NCBI GenBank assembly: GCA_009845905.1
Contig: VXYS01000013.1
Span: 98,924-162,923, forward strand
Length of the DNA stretch: 64,000 nt
Source of the DNA: Gammaproteobacteria bacterium
GTDB lineage: Bacteria; Pseudomonadota; Gammaproteobacteria; Steroidobacterales; Foliamicaceae
Direction of reading: 5' to 3'
Within the stretch, counting starts at the first letter, position 1, and the number at the start of each line of letters is the position of its first letter. Below the pieces are notes generated by a model, which was not told where the DNA came from, did not search any database, and saw nothing but the letters and a program-made list of their open reading frames with translations. Below, piece after piece: positions 26,478 through 35,753 of this stretch. A program made the position numbers and the translations under genes.

Positions 26478-27701
26478 GTGCCGCGACAGCAATCGCCGGG
26501 GCCGGCCATTCTTTCCGACCTGCTCAGCCGCAACATTCTGATCCTGCTCGTGGCGCAGGCCGCTTCCGTTACCGGTACGGTCGCGATCGTTACGGTGGGT
26601 GGAATCCTGGGCCGCAATCTGGCGGGGAACCCGGCACTGGCCACGCTGCCGCTGTCGATGCTGATCGTCGCCACGGCGCTTTCCACCATCGTTGCCGCTT
26701 CGATTATGTCCCGTATCGGGCGGCCCCGGGGTTTTGCTCTGGGCTCGGCCCTCGGCGCCGCGGGAGCGGGGTGCGCCTGGGCCGCCACTGTGGTGGGGAG
26801 CTTCGCCCTGTTCTGCCTGGGTTCAATACTCATAGGCTGCGCCACGGCCTTCGCGCAGCAGTACCGGTTCGCCGCCACGGAGAGCGTCAGGCCTGCTGCG
26901 GCGCCTACGGCGGTCGCGGTGGTGCTGACGGGCTCGATGGCCGGCGCGATACTGGGCCCCAGCCTGGTTGCGCGCGGCGAGTCCTGGATTGCCGGCGCGC
27001 AGTTCGGCGGCAGCTTCGCGGCGATGGCGGCTTGCTACGCGCTGGCCGGCGCCGTTCTCCTGGCGCTGCGCCCGGCCTCGTCTAAAGCGCGGGAGGAATC
27101 CGGCGGCGACGTCCGCCCACTGAGGAACATTGCCGAGAGCCGGCTGTTCATTGTGGCCGTGGTCGGCGCGGCGATGGGGCAGGGCGTCATGGCCTTCATG
27201 ATGACGGCGGCCCCGTTGGCCATGCACGTCGTTGACGGGCATTCCCTGGCCGCGACGGCGGCGATCATCCAGGCGCATGTGCTGGCGATGTACGCGCCGT
27301 CGCTCGTTGCCGGGGGGCTGATCACGCGATTCGGCGCCGGGCGCGTCATGATGGCGGGCGCGGTTCTTCTTGGCGTGACACTTGCCGCGGGGCTGGCGGG
27401 CCGGGAGGTCATGCACTACGGGATTGCCATGGTGGCGCTGGGTTTCGGCTGGAATTTCCTGTATGTGGGCGGAACGACGCTGCTGGCGCGCTCCTATCGA
27501 CCGGCGGAACGTTTTCGCGTCCAGGGCCTCAACGATTTCATCGTGCTGGGATGCGCGGCTGTGGGATCTCTGAGCGCCGGGGCGGTGATGCAGCTTCTGG
27601 GCTGGGACGCCGTGCTGTACGCTTCCATGCCTGCGATCATGCTGGCGATGGCGGCGATTATCTGGGCTCGGCCGGATCGTGAACGCGTGGTTGCGGGCTG
27701 A
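26478..27701 (+). CDS. MFS transporter
   Basis: 407-aa protein with about 12 TM segments and a typical MFS two-halves layout. Substrate is unknown. It has a GTG start. Confidence 0.75.
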   Translation: MPRQQSPGPAILSDLLSRNILILLVAQAASVTGTVAIVTVGGILGRNLAGNPALATLPLSMLIVATALSTIVAASIMSRIGRPRGFALGSALGAAGAGCAWAATVVGSFALFCLGSILIGCATAFAQQYRFAATESVRPAAAPTAVAVVLTGSMAGAILGPSLVARGESWIAGAQFGGSFAAMAACYALAGAVLLALRPASSKAREESGGDVRPLRNIAESRLFIVAVVGAAMGQGVMAFMMTAAPLAMHVVDGHSLAATAAIIQAHVLAMYAPSLVAGGLITRFGAGRVMMAGAVLLGVTLAAGLAGREVMHYGIAMVALGFGWNFLYVGGTTLLARSYRPAERFRVQGLNDFIVLGCAAVGSLSAGAVMQLLGWDAVLYASMPAIMLAMAAIIWARPDRERVVAG

Positions 27702-27711
27702 AATGCCTGTC

Positions 27712-29721
27712 ATGAAATCCGTATTCGCGAAGATTCCTGTCGTGGTCATCTGGGCCGCGTTGATATGCGGTTGCGCCGCGGTTGCGCCACGCGACATCGC
27801 AAGCGGTCCGGAAGCGTCGCGGTATTCGGCCGCCATGCCGGCCGGGGGCCTCGTGCATTACACGGAAGAGCGCGAAGCCTGTGCGAATCGAAACCCCTAT
27901 CGCAACGCCTACTTCGGCGATCTGCACGTCCATACTTCCTATTCCTACGACGCCCGGCCCCTGGGCGTGACGACGCTGCCGGCGGACGCATACCGCTACG
28001 CGCGCGGCGAGGAAATCCAGCTACCTCCCTATGAGGAGGGCGGGGAATTGGTGCCGGTCCGGAAGATCGGTCCCGCACTGGACTTTGCCGCCGTCACCGA
28101 CCACGCGGAGTTCTTCGGCGAACACGCCCTGTGCGCGGACGCCAGCAGCGAGGCCTACGGCAGCCGAAGCTGCGAGGCCATCCGCAGCGGCGGCCCCACC
28201 GCGATCCTGGTCCTGGTGCGAGGCCTGTCGAGAGACGTCCCGACGCGCAGCGCGGACATCTGCGGCGACGACGGCGCCCGTTGCGCGGAAGCCGCCCGGA
28301 CGTACTGGGAGCGCACCCGCGAGATGGCGGAAGCGGCCTACGACCGCTCCTCGAACTGCGGCTTCACGAGCTTCGTAGCCTATGAGCACAGCGCCAGCCG
28401 CGACAACAACTCCTACCATCGCAACGTGATCTTTCGCAACGACAAGGTGCCGGAGTTGCCGATTTCCACCTTCGAGGCGCCGACTGACAGGGAGCTGTTC
28501 GACCTGCTGGGCGTCGAGTGCCTCGAGGGCCTGGCGGGATGCGATGTGCTATCCATACCGCACAGTTCCAACCTGAGTTCCGGGGTCCTGTTTACCTCCG
28601 CTGTCGATGGATCGGATTCCGCCCGGGCCGCAACAATCGCGGCGCGGCAGCGCAATCTGCTGGAGCCGATCGTGGAAATCTTTCAGCACAAGGGCAGCGC
28701 GGAGTGCTTCAACGGGCTTCCCGGCATCCTGGGCGGGCCGGACGAGTTGTGCGACATGGAAGAACTGCGCCGGTATTACCGGGGATTGCCGGCGGAGGAC
28801 AACCCGCCGCCGTTCTGCGGCGAAGGCGAGACGGGGATGGGCGCCAGCCTGAACGCCGGATGCGTTTCCAGGAACGACTATTACCGCGGCATTCTCCTGA
28901 CCGGCCTGCAAATCGGTCGACGGCTTGGCGCCAATCCCTACAAGTTCGGCGTTATCGGCTCGACGGACACGCATCTGTCCACGTCCGGCGACGTCGATGA
29001 GAGCGGTTGGCGCGGCCATACCGTTTCCGAGACCGATCTCGGCGAGCGCCTCACGCCCAGCCCCGTGCATCCGATCGGACTGTATACGAATCCGGGCGGC
29101 CTGGCGGGCGTCTGGGCGGTCGAGAACTCGCGCGACGCCCTGTTCGAAGCGCTGAAGCGGCGCGAAGTGTTCGGGACGACCGGTCCCCGCATCCGGCCGC
29201 GTTTCTTCGGCGGTTGGGACTATTCCGAAGACGCCTGCAAGTCCGTGGCGGAAACCGGGTACGCGAAAGGCGTGCCGATGGGAGAGGACCTGCCTGCCGG
29301 CCCAACCGGCTCTTCGCCGCGCTTTCTGGTGGTGGCCGGGCGCGATCTCGAAAGCGCGCCCCTGCTGCGTCTGCAGGTGATCAAGGGCTGGGTGGACGAC
29401 AACGACCAGGCACACTACAAGGTGTTTGATGTCGCCGGAGATTCCGAGTCCAGCGGCGCGATAGATCCGGAAACGGGAGTCTGGAGCGGCCCCGGACACG
29501 ATGCGCTTTGCGGCGTGTTCGAGGACCCTGAATTCGATCCGGATGAGCCGAGCTACTACTACATGCGGGCGGTGGAGACGCCGTCGCTGCGGTGGAGTTG
29601 GCGCCAGTGTCTGGAACTGCCGGTTGACGCGCGTCCGGCGGAATGCGCAAATACGGCGCCCAAAATCATTCGGGAGCTGGCCTGGAGTTCGCCCATCTGG
29701 TACACGCCCGGCGACAGTTAG
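27712..29721 (+). CDS. DUF3604 family protein (PHP-like metal-dependent hydrolase fold), probable lipoprotein
   Basis: MKSVFAKIPVVVIWAALICGCAA is the leader. It is followed by YFGDLHVHTSYSYDA, DFAAVTDHAEF, YEHSAS and IGSTDTHLS, a metal-ligand-like motif set typical of DUF3604. The start could also be 27679. Confidence 0.7.
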   Translation: MKSVFAKIPVVVIWAALICGCAAVAPRDIASGPEASRYSAAMPAGGLVHYTEEREACANRNPYRNAYFGDLHVHTSYSYDARPLGVTTLPADAYRYARGEEIQLPPYEEGGELVPVRKIGPALDFAAVTDHAEFFGEHALCADASSEAYGSRSCEAIRSGGPTAILVLVRGLSRDVPTRSADICGDDGARCAEAARTYWERTREMAEAAYDRSSNCGFTSFVAYEHSASRDNNSYHRNVIFRNDKVPELPISTFEAPTDRELFDLLGVECLEGLAGCDVLSIPHSSNLSSGVLFTSAVDGSDSARAATIAARQRNLLEPIVEIFQHKGSAECFNGLPGILGGPDELCDMEELRRYYRGLPAEDNPPPFCGEGETGMGASLNAGCVSRNDYYRGILLTGLQIGRRLGANPYKFGVIGSTDTHLSTSGDVDESGWRGHTVSETDLGERLTPSPVHPIGLYTNPGGLAGVWAVENSRDALFEALKRREVFGTTGPRIRPRFFGGWDYSEDACKSVAETGYAKGVPMGEDLPAGPTGSSPRFLVVAGRDLESAPLLRLQVIKGWVDDNDQAHYKVFDVAGDSESSGAIDPETGVWSGPGHDALCGVFEDPEFDPDEPSYYYMRAVETPSLRWSWRQCLELPVDARPAECANTAPKIIRELAWSSPIWYTPGDS

Positions 29722-29739
29722 CCCGGATAAAATTCCGGA

Positions 29740-30711
29740 ATGAGCAATGCAATTCAGGTAGACCGGGCGGGCGGCCCGGAAGTGATGGAGTGGCGCGCCG
29801 TCGATGTGGGCGCTCCCGGACCCGGCGAACTGCTTATCGGTAACCGGGCCATCGGTTTCAACTTTATTGACACCTACTTTCGCACAGGCGTCTATCCGCT
29901 GGAATATCCGAGCGGACTGGGCTCCGAAGGCGCGGGCGAAGTGCTGGCGGTAGGCGAGGGTGTCGAAGGGTTCGCCCCGGGAGATCGGGTGGCCTATTGC
30001 ACGCCGCCGATAGGGGCCTATTCGGAGGAAAGAGTTTATCCCGCGGACCGTACCGTGCCTCTTCCGGATTCCGTCAGCTACGAGCAGGCCGCCGCCATGA
30101 TGCTGAAAGGACTGACGAGCTGGTACCTGCTGCACCACAGCTACCCGGTGCAGGAAGGCGACGATGTACTGCTGTATGCGGCTGCCGGGGGCGTAGGGCA
30201 GATCGCCGCGCAGTGGGCGGCGCTTCTGGGAGCGCGCGTCATCGGCATCGTGGGCAGCAGCGGCAAGGTGGACGAGGCGCGCCGGGCAGGCTGCGCCGAT
30301 GTCGTGCTGGCCGACGATCCGGATCTCGTGGCCAGGGTGCGGGAACTGAGCGGGGGCGGCGTGGCTGCTGTCTATGACTCGCTGGGGAAGGACACGTTCA
30401 TGCAGTCGCTGGACTGCCTGCGTCCGCTCGGCACGATGGTCACTTTCGGCAATGCGACCGGCCTGGTGGAGCCGATCGCGCCCATTGATCTGGCGCGGCG
30501 CGGCTCATTGAAGCTGACCCGGCCGATCCTGTTCGATTTCGTGTCGACCGAGGAGCAACTGCGCAACGCGGCCGCAACGTTGTTCGAGCAGGTCGGATCA
30601 GGCGCCCTCTCGATCAAGATCGGTCAGCGCTACCCCTTGCAGGAAGTGGCCCGGGCGCACCGCGACGCCGAGGGCCGGCGCACCACCGGCTCTACGATTC
30701 TGCTTCCCTGA
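29740..30711 (+). CDS. qor: NADPH:quinone oxidoreductase (zeta-crystallin/Qor type MDR)
   Basis: GGPEVMEWRAVDVGAPGPGELLIGNRAIGFNFIDTYFRTGVYP and AAAGGVGQIAAQWA. It is collinear with E. coli Qor. Confidence 0.85.
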   Translation: MSNAIQVDRAGGPEVMEWRAVDVGAPGPGELLIGNRAIGFNFIDTYFRTGVYPLEYPSGLGSEGAGEVLAVGEGVEGFAPGDRVAYCTPPIGAYSEERVYPADRTVPLPDSVSYEQAAAMMLKGLTSWYLLHHSYPVQEGDDVLLYAAAGGVGQIAAQWAALLGARVIGIVGSSGKVDEARRAGCADVVLADDPDLVARVRELSGGGVAAVYDSLGKDTFMQSLDCLRPLGTMVTFGNATGLVEPIAPIDLARRGSLKLTRPILFDFVSTEEQLRNAAATLFEQVGSGALSIKIGQRYPLQEVARAHRDAEGRRTTGSTILLP

Positions 30712-30854: not shown

Positions 30855-31850
30855 TCAGGCGTTGGGCAGGACGATGATCTTGCCGTCGCGGGCCGAGCCG
30901 GTGCGTCCGGCGTGGGCGAAGGCTTCACGCCATTCATCCAGCGTGTAGCGGGCGGCGATCTTTGCGCTCAGGCGCCCGTCGGCCGCCATCAGCGCGATCT
31001 CCTCCTGTAACTCGTCGATTTCCGCTTCGGTGCGGGTCGCGAAACAGCGTGTCGTCGACATGCCGCACAGGCGGATGTCGTGCAGGAACATCTGCCAGAA
31101 ATCGATCCGGCAGGGCTCGTCGGTCAGCGTCCCGTAATTAACGATCAGGCCGCCGTCGGCCAGGCAGTCGGCCATGCGCATGACCCCTTCTCCGGCGATG
31201 GCGTCGATCCCGAGGCGGATATCCGCCCCGCCGGTGGCCTCGCGGATGCGCGCCGGCAGGTCCGGTCCGTCCAGAACCACGGCGTCGGCGCCCAGGTCCT
31301 TCAGTTCCTGAACAACTTCCTCGCGCCGTACGAGATTGACTGTGCGATAGCCCCACTTTGCCGCCAGGACGATCAGATACCGCCCCACATTGGAATTGGC
31401 CGCGTCCTGCAGCACCCATTCGCCCTGCTCGAGGTCCACGAAGTCCTGCAGCAGCGTCCAGGCGGTTGCGCCGTTGATATTCGAAAGCACGAGCTGTTCC
31501 GCGTCACCAGCCGGCGCGCGCCGCATGCCCATGGCGTTCCTGTGGACCCGCACGTACTCGGAGAACGTGCCGCAGCCCAGCGGAAGAAACACACGGTCGC
31601 CGACTTGGTAGCCCGAATCGGCGCCGGTCTCCACAACGGTTCCCACGCCCTCGAAGCCCGGCGTGACGGGCAGGGGACGGCGTAGCGCGTCGATGCCCTG
31701 CACCAGCTTGATGTCGGCGATATGCATCGCGCTGGCTTCCAGCCTGGCGATGACCTCGCCCGGCCCCGGATCGCCGAGTTCAACCTCCTCCAGCCGCACC
31801 ACGTCAGCCGGTTCGCCGTTTTCGTCGAACCTAAGCCGGCGTGTCCGCAT
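30855..31850 (-). CDS. Medium-chain dehydrogenase/reductase (MDR) family, enoyl-reductase/quinone-reductase-like
   Basis: 331 aa with GEVIARLEASAMHIADIKLVQG and a GroES-like plus Rossmann layout (VLQDAANSNVGRYLIVLAKWGY). There is no structural-zinc Cys cluster. It overlaps the upstream gene by 20 nt. Confidence 0.7.
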   Translation of the reverse strand: MRTRRLRFDENGEPADVVRLEEVELGDPGPGEVIARLEASAMHIADIKLVQGIDALRRPLPVTPGFEGVGTVVETGADSGYQVGDRVFLPLGCGTFSEYVRVHRNAMGMRRAPAGDAEQLVLSNINGATAWTLLQDFVDLEQGEWVLQDAANSNVGRYLIVLAAKWGYRTVNLVRREEVVQELKDLGADAVVLDGPDLPARIREATGGADIRLGIDAIAGEGVMRMADCLADGGLIVNYGTLTDEPCRIDFWQMFLHDIRLCGMSTTRCFATRTEAEIDELQEEIALMAADGRLSAKIAARYTLDEWREAFAHAGRTGSARDGKIIVLPNA

Positions 31851-32721
31851 CGGTGCGATATCTGTCCAGCAGTTCCTCGCTGAGGCCGAATTCCCGGGCC
31901 AGTCCCTTGAACAGTTCGCCGGTCACGGCGTTCTCGCCCCGGTCGAGCAGCGTGCCTTCGACCTGGCCCCTGACCATCTTCTGCAGGGCCTTGGGTACCC
32001 CGTCGAGCATTTCCAGCGCCTGGGCGTCCCACTCCATCGCGTCGGTTTCCGCGGCTTCCTCCGCTTCTTCCGTCTCCACGGGCGGCACGTACACGTCCGG
32101 CGGATCGCCCAGTACGTGCATGACCACGTCGCGGGTAGAGGTATGGAAATAGTCCCTGCGTTTCTCATCGCCCAGCCCCACCGGCAGGGCCATGGCCGGC
32201 AGGCGCTCGGCGCGGGGCAGGGCGGCCAGGCCCTTGTCCATCACGATGGCTTCGATATTGCCGATCACGTGGGCCTGGGTGCGGTCGAGTTCGTAGAACT
32301 TGTCGACCGTGCATTCCATGATCTGCGGGCACTCGGCGATGCTCGGCGGCTTGACCTTGCGCGAAGGGATCATCGTGTAGCCGGTGTAATCCAGTTCGTT
32401 GGCGCCCTCGGGATAGAAACGGCCGGTCTCCATCATGTCGTCGAGGGTCTCGTACTTCGGGCAGTTGATGACGAACTCCCCCGTGTCCCTTATGTTGATC
32501 ATCGTGTGCGCGGTGTTGCGGCCGCCCAGCAATATGCGCGGTTTCTTGTGCATCACGTCGTACTGCATGATGTGCGAAAAGGCGCCGGCGTTCACGCGGC
32601 CGTGCTTGTCCAGCGTGGTGACGATGGTGATGAGCTTGGGGAAGATCCAGTAATCCGAATACCAGAACGGCCGGATCCGCACTTCCTCCTTCTCGGGCAG
32701 TGTCTTAACTTGTGCGTCCAT
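31831..32721 (-). CDS. Flavin-reductase-like (FMN-binding split barrel) protein with a PCP_red-like C-terminal module
   Basis: Start at the ATG at 32721 (MDAQVKTLPEK...). The core is LITIVTTLDKHGRVNAGAFSH...NIRDTGEFVINCP. After an acidic linker the C-terminus reads WDAQALEMLDGVPKALQKMVRGQVEGTLLDRG, resembling the small helical domain at the end of BchB/ChlB. Confidence 0.6.
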   Translation of the reverse strand: MDAQVKTLPEKEEVRIRPFWYSDYWIFPKLITIVTTLDKHGRVNAGAFSHIMQYDVMHKKPRILLGGRNTAHTMINIRDTGEFVINCPKYETLDDMMETGRFYPEGANELDYTGYTMIPSRKVKPPSIAECPQIMECTVDKFYELDRTQAHVIGNIEAIVMDKGLAALPRAERLPAMALPVGLGDEKRRDYFHTSTRDVVMHVLGDPPDVYVPPVETEEAEEAAETDAMEWDAQALEMLDGVPKALQKMVRGQVEGTLLDRGENAVTGELFKGLAREFGLSEELLDRYRTDADTPA

Positions 32722-32847
32722 GTCGCGGAAGTATAGCCGCCATCCCTGATCCGGCGCGTGATTTTTCGATCTGCTAGACTCGCGCCGCGTCGCGTAGGTC
32801 GACCGGCCGGCCGGCGCCACATCGATACCAACAGGCGGAAAGATTCA

Positions 32848-33729
32848 ATGGGTTTGCTGGACCGCGTATTCGGCCCGAAGACGATCGACGAAAAGTTCGT
32901 CAACAGCCCGATGCGCGACAACTGGTACCAGGCCAGTTCGTACTGGCCGTCGTCCTTCTCGTTGATTACGACGGTCAGCGAAGATGGTTTGACCAATATC
33001 GGCCCGTATCAACTGACCCTTCCGTTCGAGGTCATCAAGGAGCGGTCCTTCCTGGTCTGCAGCCGCAAGGGATCGAATACCGAGACCAACCTGCATCGCA
33101 ATCCCAGGTGCGCCGTGAACTTCGTCGAGTTCGACCGGAAGAAGCTGAAGAAGATCGTGGGTCTGGGCTATCCGGGCCAGACCACCGAGGAGAAGATGGC
33201 GGACAACCCGTACACGCTGATCGAGAGTCCCACGCCCGGACGCGGAACGGCGGACGGATGCCCGCTGATCATCAAGGAAGCGTTCCAGGTGCATGAAGCG
33301 CACTGGGACGAGACGTTCCGGATCAAGGACGACGGCAGGACGCCCGAATACCTGGTGCTCCGGCTCGAGAACATCCTGCTGAAGGAAACCTGGGCGAAGA
33401 ACATCGAGAACGGCACCCGGCGCATGCCCAACATGCCCATCACGTTCGGGTTCCGTGACGGAGAGAAGTTCTGGTTCGCCGAAAGAAAAAAGGCCTTCTG
33501 GTTCCCGACGCCAACCGACAAGGGCCCTAAGGAAGAGTCGGTGCTCTACGAAGCCAACCGCATCGACCCGGAAGTCAGGTTCACGCGCGAAGCCTGCAAG
33601 CAACTGACCGGCATACCCAAGCCCTTCATCAAGACGGCACTCAAGGGAATCATCAAGCAGGCCAAGGAGCGCGGCGTCACCGAAGTCGACCGCGAATTCG
33701 TCGAGATGCTGAACAAGGAGCGCGGCTGA
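32848..33729 (+). CDS. Flavin-reductase-like protein with a PCP_red-like C-terminal module (paralogous architecture)
   Basis: Start at the ATG at 32848 (MGLLDRVFGPK...). The core is SLITTVSEDGLTNIGPYQL...NLHRNPRCAVNFV. The C-terminus reads VRFTREACKQLTGIPKPFIKTALKGIIKQAKERGVTEVDREFVEML. Confidence 0.6.
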   Translation: MGLLDRVFGPKTIDEKFVNSPMRDNWYQASSYWPSSFSLITTVSEDGLTNIGPYQLTLPFEVIKERSFLVCSRKGSNTETNLHRNPRCAVNFVEFDRKKLKKIVGLGYPGQTTEEKMADNPYTLIESPTPGRGTADGCPLIIKEAFQVHEAHWDETFRIKDDGRTPEYLVLRLENILLKETWAKNIENGTRRMPNMPITFGFRDGEKFWFAERKKAFWFPTPTDKGPKEESVLYEANRIDPEVRFTREACKQLTGIPKPFIKTALKGIIKQAKERGVTEVDREFVEMLNKERG

Positions 33730-33751: not shown

Positions 33752-34288
33752 TCAGGCTCCCCCCGCGGGACTCAACACGATCGCCGCCCGGATCTCGTCA
33801 AAAACCGAGTCAGCAAACCCGTGGATCTGCTCGGTGGTCCGGTTCAGTACCGGGTGAGGCGTATACACGGACGCGCCGTCAAAACCTATCTTCGAGCACT
33901 GTTGCTCGAACGCCTGCTTGAACGCGGTCGTCAGGACGCTGACGCCGGGAATACCCAGGTTGTCGAGATCATTCAGGTCATGGGTCGAACACGATGTGCA
34001 CGACCCGCAGTCAGAGAGAGCCAATACGACCACATCGGTTTCGGTGACGATGTCCTGGATTATCTCGGTGGGGGCCGTGCGCGTATTCGTCGGTTTCTTG
34101 TACCGTTTGGTGGAAACTTTCGACTCGGTGAACAATTGTTCGAGGCGATCGACGAATTCGTCTCCCCGCATCTTGCCGATATCGAGCAGGGCCACGGTCT
34201 TGCCATCCAGTGACGCGGGTGGCGGCTGCCGCGGCCTGTTCACGGCAGCCGATTCCGCCGTGGGGTCTCGCAGGGTAATCGCGCTCAC
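33752..34288 (-). CDS. UGSC-family (seleno)protein homolog, Cys variant (CGSC)
   Basis: About 178 aa with the motif LALSDCGSCTSCSTHD. I recall an NCBI family named for a U-G-S-C motif, and here the first position is Cys. I set the start at the GTG at 34288, which forms a GTGA overlap with the upstream stop. The track ORF to 34351 lies inside the upstream gene. Confidence 0.5.
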   Translation of the reverse strand: MSAITLRDPTAESAAVNRPRQPPPASLDGKTVALLDIGKMRGDEFVDRLEQLFTESKVSTKRYKKPTNTRTAPTEIIQDIVTETDVVVLALSDCGSCTSCSTHDLNDLDNLGIPGVSVLTTAFKQAFEQQCSKIGFDGASVYTPHPVLNRTTEQIHGFADSVFDEIRAAIVLSPAGGA

Positions 34289-35730
34289 AACACGATTTCC
34301 CTCGTGACGGGCTGAGATTCCTCCCGAAAACGGCCACCGGTCCAGCCGCAAAGAATCGCCGAGTACAAGCCAGCCTGTCCGCCGGCGCGCACGATCAGCA
34401 GACCTTCGGGCCAGAACTTATTGACAGTCTCTTCGGCGCGGGCGGGATCGATACCCTCTCCGACGCCCTGGGCGCCCTGCATGATCTCGGCCCCGGGTCT
34501 CTTCAGGTTGTCGTGCAGCGACGCCGTGATGTCGGCGCGGTTCCATCCCGCATCGCGAAAGATGGCGTGATGCTCCGGCGACAGCACGAGCATCGCGTTC
34601 GTGAACTCGGCGAGCTTTACGTGGCCGACCGCCAGCAACGACATGGCCAGCGACTTGCTGAGTTCTTCAGGCGTATTGGAGCGCCAGTCGATGATCCCCT
34701 GCACCCCGTCGCCCTGGAACAAGGTGACGGTGTTCTGCCCCCGCGCAAACCCACGCGATACCGACAGCGGTTCCCAATCGGGATCTGTGTACTCGTCCTC
34801 GGCGAAACAGAACGTGTGTTTTCCCGGGCCGCCCAGCGTCGAGCGATCCAGATCGCCCGGTATGCCGCCGCCGACATTGCGCACGATCAACTGCAGTGCG
34901 CGGCCGATCGTCGAATTCGCCCGATTGCCCTGGCCGAGCGCGTTGATTCCCCAGTTCATCCCGATCCTTTTGGCGATCGGCCCGTTGACGACGATGATCG
35001 GCGACGAGAAGCACGTTGTGCAGAGCAGCCCGTGAAGCGTGAAGACGGGTTCGAGCGCGGCCTCCAGCGCGGCCAGAACGACCGGAAAATACTCGGGCTT
35101 GCAGCCTGCCATGACCGCGTTGACCGCGGCTTTTTCAACCGTGATCGACGCCAGGTTGGGCGGGACCTTGCCGATGACTTCGTCGGCTGCACGGCTCGTT
35201 CCCTTGAGCATGCGAAGAATGCGCGCATCGGTCGGTGGCGTGACCGGCAGGCCATCGGTCCAACCGTGATCGAAGCAGGACTCCATTTCGTCGTCCCAGT
35301 CCTCTAGGCGAACGACCCGTGCGGACAACCCGGGGTCTCCATACCTTGCGACCAGATTCTCGTAAATTCCGGGCTCGATGCTCCTGGAACCACACCCGGG
35401 GCGAAACTCGGGCAGGTCCTCCGCCAGCGTCGGCAAGTCCAGCATTTCTCGCCAGCCGGCCCTGTCCCAGCCATCGACGCGACCCGTTTCACTGTCGTGG
35501 TCGAGCGCGATCAGAGTCGGCGTCGTCTCCACGTTCCAGCGGTACGACTCTTCCAGCAACGTATCGTCGCCGGGCGAATGCGCGCCGAGAAATGCCGGAT
35601 CGTCCTGTACCAGGATTCTTATCGCCTTGCCGGCATCGATTGCTTCTCCGATGACCGGCTCGATCAGTTGACAGGTCTCGCACTCCGCCTTGACGAACAG
35701 GAGGTGCGAAATTTGCGAGGCATCGCCCAT
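34285..35730 (-). CDS. Thioredoxin-fold domain (CxxC = CETC) fused to a large uncharacterised conserved domain
   Basis: Start at the ATG at 35730. The first ~110 aa look like a thioredoxin fold (LLFVKAECETCQLIEPVI...TTPTLIAL). The remaining ~370 aa (GWTDGLPVTPPT...TVEKAAVNAVMAGCKPEYFPVVLAA...VVNGPIAKRIGMN...GNRANSTIGRALQLIVRNVGGG...) match no family I can name. Confidence 0.55.
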   Translation of the reverse strand: MGDASQISHLLFVKAECETCQLIEPVIGEAIDAGKAIRILVQDDPAFLGAHSPGDDTLLEESYRWNVETTPTLIALDHDSETGRVDGWDRAGWREMLDLPTLAEDLPEFRPGCGSRSIEPGIYENLVARYGDPGLSARVVRLEDWDDEMESCFDHGWTDGLPVTPPTDARILRMLKGTSRAADEVIGKVPPNLASITVEKAAVNAVMAGCKPEYFPVVLAALEAALEPVFTLHGLLCTTCFSSPIIVVNGPIAKRIGMNWGINALGQGNRANSTIGRALQLIVRNVGGGIPGDLDRSTLGGPGKHTFCFAEDEYTDPDWEPLSVSRGFARGQNTVTLFQGDGVQGIIDWRSNTPEELSKSLAMSLLAVGHVKLAEFTNAMLVLSPEHHAIFRDAGWNRADITASLHDNLKRPGAEIMQGAQGVGEGIDPARAEETVNKFWPEGLLIVRAGGQAGLYSAILCGWTGGRFREESQPVTREIVL

Positions 35731-35753
35731 TTTCAAGCGCCTTCAAAAAATAC

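Follow-up and report, generated by a model that had tools for sequence, protein, structure and literature searches.

What a domain of dark protochlorophyllide reductase (DPOR) might be doing at the C-termini of two flavin-reductase-like proteins is the question raised by a 64,000-nucleotide stretch of DNA, hereafter the window, from a marine sponge-associated gammaproteobacterium (contig VXYS01000013.1). Within it, two uncharacterised genes, here designated A and B, are arranged head-to-head. Gene A (31831..32721, minus strand) encodes a protein of 296 amino acids (aa) with the N-terminus MDAQVK, in which a flavin-reductase-like domain is followed by a C-terminal module of the PCP_red type; gene B (32848..33729, plus strand) encodes a 293-aa paralogue with the N-terminus MGLLDR and the same architecture. 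A divergent spacer of 126 bp (32722..32847) separates the two. The open reading frame (ORF) map and the sequence agree on these coordinates, on the length of the spacer and on the head-to-head layout, all of which had been given in the original prediction, and both start codons are backed by conserved N-termini among the homologues.

The reading we favour, to which we assign a probability of about 0.55 as a whole, is that A and B represent two ancient sister families of split-barrel flavoproteins of the flavin mononucleotide (FMN) type, whose ancestor already had a C-terminal PCP_red module, and that they act as FMN-dependent reductase partners in which the tail serves as a lid or docking element. 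As a matter of domain architecture, the finding is well supported, and it is a fairly ordinary case of module reuse that will not surprise a specialist. The architecture had been called unusual, which proved an overstatement: most A homologues already carry PF08369 (PCP_red) and PF01613 (Flavin_Reduct) in precomputed Pfam annotation, where the combination is plainly visible, and the role at the level of substrate proposed below is a prediction from sequence. What is added here is the cryptic PCP_red tail of the B family, the ancestral full-length architecture common to A and B, and a third family, DUF169, that carries the same tail beside B. Within the searchable library, we found no description of this architecture in the literature on PCP_red/PF08369, Foliamicus, flavoredoxin or split-barrel fusions.

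Split-barrel domains and homology of A and B

The core of the FMN-type split beta-barrel of A comprises residues 27-164 (32230..32643, minus strand), and A matches Flavin_Reduct with an E-value of 2.9e-15 and a score of 57.2 bits, against a gathering cut-off of 27. When PDB was searched with the single sequence, the closest matches were 1eje (MTH152; E 3.5e-18), NbaA (4z85), PH0856, 3bpk, 3e4v, and flavoredoxin. A profile of the A family matched 1eje at E 5e-24 and NbaA at E 5.5e-16; it also matched 2kru, the C-terminal domain of BchB, at E 5.7e-6, a structure that the single sequence had matched at E 0.036. The equivalent region of B (residues ca. 22-190; 32911..33417, plus strand) is recognizable as a PNPOx/flavin-reductase-like split beta-barrel. 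B scores 17.5 bits (E 0.0047) with Flavin_Reduct, below the gathering cut-off, and narrowly passes that of PNPOx_N (28.9 bits, with a cut-off of 28.1). No PDB entry was matched by the single B sequence, and the B family profile retrieved 1eje alone (E 5.6e-4).

AlphaFold2 models of both proteins were compared to solved structures with Foldseek. The model of A is mediocre, with a mean predicted local distance difference test (pLDDT) of 66.5 and a linker below 50 that precedes the helical tail; that of B is good (pLDDT 83.5, pTM 0.79). The top matches were 1eje, 3bnk, and 4z85 for A, and 3e4v (3e-9), 1eje (1.4e-8), and 4z85 (1.5e-8) for B. Both models matched 1eje, 3e4v, 4z85, 3bnk, and 2d5m with a Foldseek probability of 1.0, and target-normalised TM-scores to split-barrel structures of 0.5-0.67 place both in this fold. 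Moreover, a loop with the pattern R-x(2-3)-S-[HN]-T-x(2)-N-[IL] is invariant within each family and aligned between them. The fold and this loop together suggest that A and B may bind FMN or flavin adenine dinucleotide (FAD) and oxidize NAD(P)H.

Thus, A and B have the same split beta-barrel fold as MTH152 (1eje), flavoredoxin (2d5m, 3bnk), PH0856 (2r6v), and NbaA (4z85), the last of which is a 2-nitrobenzoate nitroreductase, and both fall in the FMN-binding MTH152/flavoredoxin/NbaA branch of PF01613, A by its sequence profile and B by its fold and the profile match to 1eje. Those relatives are single-domain proteins of ca. 180-215 aa, whereas A and B add a conserved beta extension of ca. 40 aa, a linker, and the PCP_red helical module of 50-70 aa. 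The two-component reductases HpaC, PheA2, NtaB, SgcE6, and CtcQ share the Pfam family and the fold with A and B; however, the matches to these reductases are weaker, in sequence as well as in fold, than those to the FMN-retaining branch.

Despite their limited identity (23%), A and B are homologous, as had been proposed, and this homology extends over their full length. BLASTP aligned them at E 5e-11, collinearly from an N-terminal W-Y motif to the last helix, and comparison of the two family alignments with hhalign gave a probability of 98.4% and an E-value of 5e-15 over 245 columns. The combination of barrel, beta extension, linker, and helical tail must therefore predate the split between the families. 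Both are large, with 425 (A) and 435 (B) homologue clusters at 90% identity (E <= 1e-3), and conserved, with mean column identities of 66% and 62%, respectively, in the sampled alignments; with some 430 conserved clusters each, the architecture is not a chance feature. Members are found in marine Gammaproteobacteria, including sponge symbionts near Candidatus Foliamicus, Woeseia, and Chromatiales, as well as in some Alphaproteobacteria and one Marinimicrobia metagenome-assembled genome (MAG). Both families are classed as flavin reductase (DIM6/NTAB), and B-family proteins are mostly labelled hypothetical or generic flavin reductase; a suitable annotation for them would be 'split-barrel flavoprotein, divergent PCP_red tail'.

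The C-terminal helical modules

The tail of A (residues 229-296; 31834..32037, minus strand) consists of a PCP_red-type helical module and an extra conserved helix; the AlphaFold2 model has four helices, at residues 233-292, after the linker. Within the whole protein, residues 231-271 match PCP_red (26.6 bits, E 6.3e-6), and the isolated tail scores 30 bits; both values fall below the Pfam gathering cut-off of 32.5 bits. The resemblance is clearer at the level of the family. Every one of 25 A-family tails, when isolated, matched PCP_red (best E 7.6e-12), and a profile built from them retrieved from PDB the BchB domain 2kru (E 4.4e-9), ChlB (2xdq_B; E 5.7e-4), and Asr4154 (2l09; E 1.6e-3). In a set of 1.84 billion representative proteins, this profile retrieved 570, and 130 of the 131 top matches that were scanned carry PF08369 above threshold. 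On this sequence evidence, the A tail qualifies as PCP_red-type at the family level. A-type tails extend beyond the PCP_red match with a conserved C-terminal helix, EFG-LSEELLDRYR, and are preceded by a poorly conserved acidic linker. Proteins of the sponge-symbiont clade carry an acidic insertion of nine residues in this linker (the VETEEAEEAAETD region; A residues ca. 207-228, 32038-32103, minus strand), which no A homologue at 50-59% identity has.

The tail of B (residues 243-293; 33574..33726, plus strand), which has the sequence VRFTREACKQLTGIPKPFIKTALKGIIKQAKERGVTEVDREFVEMLNKERG, is a divergent PCP_red-like helical module modelled with a pLDDT of 91-96. Searches of Pfam, NCBIfam, and PDB with whole B gave no PCP_red match. 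The isolated tail matched PCP_red with 16 bits (E 0.012), covering profile positions 2-42 of 45, and weak matches were obtained with 17 of 27 isolated B-family tails (best E 7e-4), for which PCP_red was the only recurrent Pfam match. Used alone, a profile of B tails found nothing significant in PDB, BchB and ChlB included. The B tail was aligned with the A module both in BLASTP and in hhalign, and the two tail profiles matched each other at E 4.7e-5, albeit with a probability of only 68%. A bridge between the two is provided by P0359, a metagenomic protein of 336 aa related to the B family (35% identity, E 5e-56), which has two tandem C-terminal modules: the first, equivalent to the B tail, scores 31.2 bits with PCP_red, and an A-type module follows it. 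The A-B alignments, this bridging protein, and the recurrent weak Pfam matches tie the B tail to PCP_red. On this indirect but consistent evidence, the B tail is a divergent derivative of PCP_red, although by the Pfam criterion it falls outside the family. Of what the original prediction had claimed, the two-part architecture is borne out in both proteins, the split barrel by Pfam and Foldseek and the helical module after it; the likeness of the tails to PCP_red stands for A and is weaker for B.

The A and B tails share with the C-terminal PCP_red domains of BchB/ChlB (2kru, 2xdq_B, 3aek_B) and with the stand-alone Asr4154 (2l09) a helical character, a C-terminal position, and the pattern W-x(3)-A-x(3)-L-x(2)-[IV]-P-x(2)-[LV]-[RK]-x(7)-E-x(2)-A-x(2)-G-x(3)-[IV]-T. 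Unlike BchB/ChlB, neither A nor B has Fe-S ligands or chlorophyll genes nearby, and Pfam found no nitrogenase-like Oxidored_nitro domain in either, as a DPOR subunit would have; in addition, A-type tails have the extra C-terminal helix. The NCBIfam BchB models match A only at residues 216-273, with 26 bits against a cut-off of 509. A and B are thus not functional relatives of BchB, whose models match the tail and nothing else.

That the module occurs without photosynthesis had been taken as a sign of some other use, yet such occurrence is not unusual, as PCP_red is widespread outside photosynthesis. Most top matches of the A tail profile have two to six tandem PCP_red copies (proteins P0241-P0390; for example L172:1877-4198, where L numbers denote the loci of our neighbourhood collection). 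Fusion partners among the 131 top matches include Usp (25), rubredoxin-like RUBY_RBDX (13), and radical SAM/SPASM (4-6) domains, together with DUF7129/DUF7130 and haem-oxygenase-like (Haem_oxygenas_2) domains; Flavin_Reduct is present in only two. Because there are many such fusion proteins with multiple copies, PCP_red can be regarded as a module that is widely reused outside chlorophyll synthesis. These proteins, such as those with Usp followed by three to six PCP_red copies and a rubredoxin-like domain, carry, outside photosynthesis, the same module as the A tail; they differ from A and B in their tandem arrays and catalytic domains, and all are uncharacterised.

Gene neighbourhoods and possible roles

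To place A and B in their genomic context, a collection of genomes was scanned with the A alignment, which gave 80 loci onto which the proteins of the window were mapped; a metagenome scan with the B alignment gave a further 80, and clustering of neighbouring ORFs covered 169 loci. Many of the resulting neighbour counts stem from related genomes and not from independent events.

The closest A locus, at 98% identity, is from the gammaproteobacterial MAG SB0673_bin_2. In the window, the coding end of A overlaps by 20 nt a downstream gene of the medium-chain dehydrogenase/reductase (MDR) family (30855..31850, minus strand; 331 aa, with the Pfam domains ADH_N and ADH_zinc_N), the ATG of which lies inside the 3' end of A. 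An MDR gene with the same overlapping junction follows A in all 18 loci at 76-98% A identity, hereafter the sponge-symbiont clade, and in none of the 62 loci in which A is 50-57% identical. In PDB, the MDR protein matched 2vcy, 7ayc, and 1zsy (E 8e-30), and it is a zinc-independent NAD(P)H reductase by family, closest to the 2-enoyl thioester reductases of the MECR/ETR type, whose pairing of ADH_N with ADH_zinc_N it shares; it falls under the NCBIfam cut-offs of every specific equivalog. The MDR gene product is thus predicted to be a MECR-like NAD(P)H enoyl reductase.

The linkage of A to B is less constant. B is divergently adjacent to A in 5 of the 18 clade loci (L010, L011, L012, L017, and L020) and 7 kb away in another (L016), and 12 have no B within 10 kb of A. 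Beyond B lies a convergent gene of the UGSC family (33752..34351, minus strand; PF24696 at E 8.5e-35, NF041046), followed by a gene for a 483-aa protein, and these two accompany B in only four loci (L010, L011, L016, and L017). In three of the four a TonB-dependent receptor stands alongside; the L016 locus ends inside the 483-aa gene. Wherever B is absent from a clade locus, murJ abuts A, which suggests that B was inserted between these two genes, alone or together with the UGSC block. The original prediction had seen a single redox neighbourhood here. The A-MDR pair is indeed fixed in the clade; the 'redox island' of the window is otherwise a lineage-specific juxtaposition, UGSC is not consistently linked to either A or B, and a conserved five-gene redox cluster is rejected on these data.

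Outside the clade, A and B are in most genomes unlinked single genes in unrelated contexts, and conservation of the neighbourhood as a whole accordingly failed to appear. Neither A nor UGSC is encoded within 10 kb even of B orthologues that are 91-94% identical. Both genes are present but far apart in CP070671 (L006, L067), OZ244979 (L007, L077), and one 79-kb contig (L001, L009). Where they are linked, the arrangement varies: they stand in tandem in L087 (separated by ca. 50 bp according to tblastn and by 22 bp as called ORFs), a hydrolase gene lies between A and B in L083 and L132, and in L100, L108, and L109 A diverges from an operon in which a membrane-protein gene precedes B. When B-centred loci were collapsed at 75% identity, a protein with an A-type tail was encoded within 3 kb of B in only one of nine lineages with full flanks.

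Other neighbours recur within particular lineages. A luciferase-like oxidoreductase is encoded 13-73 bp downstream of A, on the same strand, in 12 loci (L040, L048, L051, L053, L065, L067, L071, L074, and L077-L080), and the same protein cluster is directly downstream of B in L083 and L131; it is nearest to the F420-dependent methylene-tetrahydromethanopterin reductase Mer, far below the family cut-offs. Among 71 distant A loci, an aldehyde dehydrogenase gene follows A in 25 (median distance ca. 50 bp), and a symporter of the sodium:alanine type, assigned by sequence inspection and not by Pfam, overlaps the A start in 19. In three lineages a UbiD decarboxylase gene diverges from A, and in two such a gene lies near B; a PEMT/ICMT-like methyltransferase gene follows B in 18 of 83 loci. 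In one low-GC clade, 16 loci encode a DUF169 (PF02596) protein divergently from B, at a distance of 70-915 bp (L147:8124-9086, minus strand, plus 15 others within L141-L168; a homologue is also encoded at L073:1695-2762). Its C-terminus is an A-type PCP_red tail (26.4 bits in Pfam; E ca. 1e-8 in BLAST to A tails). A DUF169 homologue with 54% identity is encoded 2.3 kb from A in an alphaproteobacterial MAG, and none was found in the window.

Two further associations were noted. Flavoredoxins have been linked to sulfite and thiosulfate reduction, and a CysI cluster (DUF2849, NIR_SIR hemoprotein, DUF934) lies ca. 3 kb from A in 12 of the 71 distant loci, as well as in L002-L005; because these genes do not adjoin A and lie on the other strand, a link to assimilatory sulfite reductase was discarded as likely clade synteny. 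A DUF1838 protein recurs beside both A- and B-family genes (L001:3317-4174, L007:6832-7842, L090, and 14 of the 71 distant A loci), often with an NmrA-like gene, and the example in L090 has a Tat-like signal.

Under the favoured explanation, A and B would be dimeric enzymes of the FMN-retaining branch, probably reduced by NAD(P)H, that either reduce a small electrophilic substrate directly, as NbaA does, or pass reduced flavin or electrons to an enzyme encoded nearby. In the window, A and the translationally coupled MECR-like enoyl reductase would together reduce an unsaturated, quinone-like, or nitro-aromatic compound in two consecutive steps, and B would be a separately transcribed paralogue with a substrate or partner of its own. 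The PCP_red tail, on its flexible linker, might close over the flavin/substrate pocket as a lid, or it might clasp, or provide a docking site for, the second subunit or an enzyme partner. By analogy with BchB we favour a lid or clasp, and otherwise docking to a partner, as a conjecture: the closest precedent is a C-terminal helix of BchB, whether part of the PCP_red module or not, that covers the DPOR substrate cavity. The partners, although varied, are consistently of a redox type (MDR, luciferase-like, aldehyde dehydrogenase, UbiD), as would be expected of a reductase module of general use more than of a single set pathway.

Several points weigh against this explanation. We infer flavin binding by B from its fold only, given that PNPOx_N was barely passed and Flavin_Reduct missed; the model of A is of low confidence; and the window A tail and all B-family tails score under the Pfam gathering cut-off of PCP_red. 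The neighbours differ by lineage, the symporter among them, and so define no single pathway, and much of their conservation may be synteny within clades. Finally, the resemblance of the luciferase-like proteins to F420-dependent Mer, and not to FMNH2-dependent monooxygenases, makes a simple two-component FMN monooxygenase a poor fit.

Other explanations were weighed on the same evidence. A and B could be classical free-flavin reductases that feed FMNH2 to luciferase-like oxygenases or to UbiX/UbiD prenylated FMN (prFMN) chemistry, with the tail a mere appendage and the MDR linkage incidental, as the DIM6/NTAB classification, the luciferase-like genes directly downstream of A or B, and the recurrence of UbiD would suggest. 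The closest solved relatives, however, are the FMN-retaining 1eje, NbaA, flavoredoxin, and PH0856 and not reductases of the HpaC/PheA2 type; the luciferase-like gene adjoins A or B in some lineages only and its product resembles Mer; most A and B genes stand beside no oxygenase gene, and none was found next to A or B in the window, as a two-component reductase would have. High conservation of the tail in both families, moreover, argues against a dispensable appendage. We consider free-flavin reduction possible rather than probable. The idea that the tails are unrelated to BchB and family-specific, their likeness to PCP_red being convergent or a spurious effect of generic amphipathic helices, is very improbable. 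It draws on the sub-threshold scores of both window tails, the empty PDB search with the B tail profile, and the modest hhalign probability between tail profiles, and it is effectively refuted for the A tail by the specific profile match to BchB C-termini, the near-universal presence of PF08369 among the top matches, and the consistent recognition of isolated A-family tails as PCP_red; for B, it is countered by the recurrence of PCP_red as the only Pfam match and by the bridging protein P0359.

The PCP_red modules might instead pair A with B, or B with another protein that has an A-type tail, to form the two halves of one enzyme or an electron relay. Both families are present in the same genomes (those of CP070671, OZ244979, and the 79-kb contig), their linkage recurs in several lineages in differing arrangements, and B is divergently paired with the DUF169 protein in 16 loci. 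Yet A and B are unlinked in most loci, no B lies within 10 kb of A in two-thirds of the loci of the clade to which the window belongs, and the collapsed B-centred lineages yielded a single positive; in addition, split-barrel flavoproteins are normally homodimers. We therefore judge such a hetero-complex unlikely. The accompanying notion, that PCP_red is a portable protein-protein docking module and that A-type and B-type tails recognize each other or a common partner, appears equally doubtful to us. If correct, the pairing of B with carriers of A-type tails, the A flavoprotein in several lineages and DUF169 in another, would build a modular flavoprotein electron relay in marine Proteobacteria, and docking would be a general function of PCP_red, including that of BchB and of the tandem arrays with Usp and rubredoxin-like domains.

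Returning to the favoured explanation, a lid or docking role for the tail would allow a function to be assigned to PCP_red, a small domain that every DPOR contains and that also occurs in unrelated proteins, hundreds of them, which are uncharacterised. In addition, two widespread flavoprotein families of marine proteobacteria would be defined, among whose partners are enoyl reductases, Mer-like oxidoreductases, aldehyde dehydrogenases, and UbiD decarboxylases.

Intergenic sequence and adjoining genes

Across the five genomes with the divergent arrangement, the 126-bp A/B spacer is conserved. A simple scan found no sigma-70 consensus promoter in it. A TATACT hexamer (32730-32735, minus strand) ends 8 nt 5' of the A ATG, within a block that is invariant across the five genomes; no matching -35 element was found, and the promoter scan gave nothing. 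From the position of this hexamer, the A-MDR transcript may be leaderless or have only a very short leader. A second block, TTTTTCGATCTGCTAGACTCGCGCCGCGTCG (32760-32800), is near-invariant in the five genomes, in which the adjoining intergenic sequence varies, and may be a regulatory site.

On the other side of B, the gap of 22 nt between its stop codon and the end of the convergent UGSC ORF, like the 20-nt overlap of A with the MDR gene, is as originally described. As listed, the UGSC ORF has a TTG start and overlaps the upstream gene for the 483-aa protein (34285-35736, minus strand) by 67 nt. The NCBIfam match of the UGSC protein begins at residue 49 and the Pfam match at residue 27, so its true start is probably further downstream. 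The 483-aa protein had no match in Pfam or NCBIfam. Convergent to the A-MDR operon, at 27679-30711 (plus strand), are genes for a DUF3604 protein (680 aa, E 2.6e-145) and an NADPH:quinone reductase-like MDR protein (332.5 bits, against a cut-off of 348), and the genome therefore carries two MDR reductases back to back. In most sponge-symbiont loci, this DUF3604/quinone-reductase-like pair is retained close to A.

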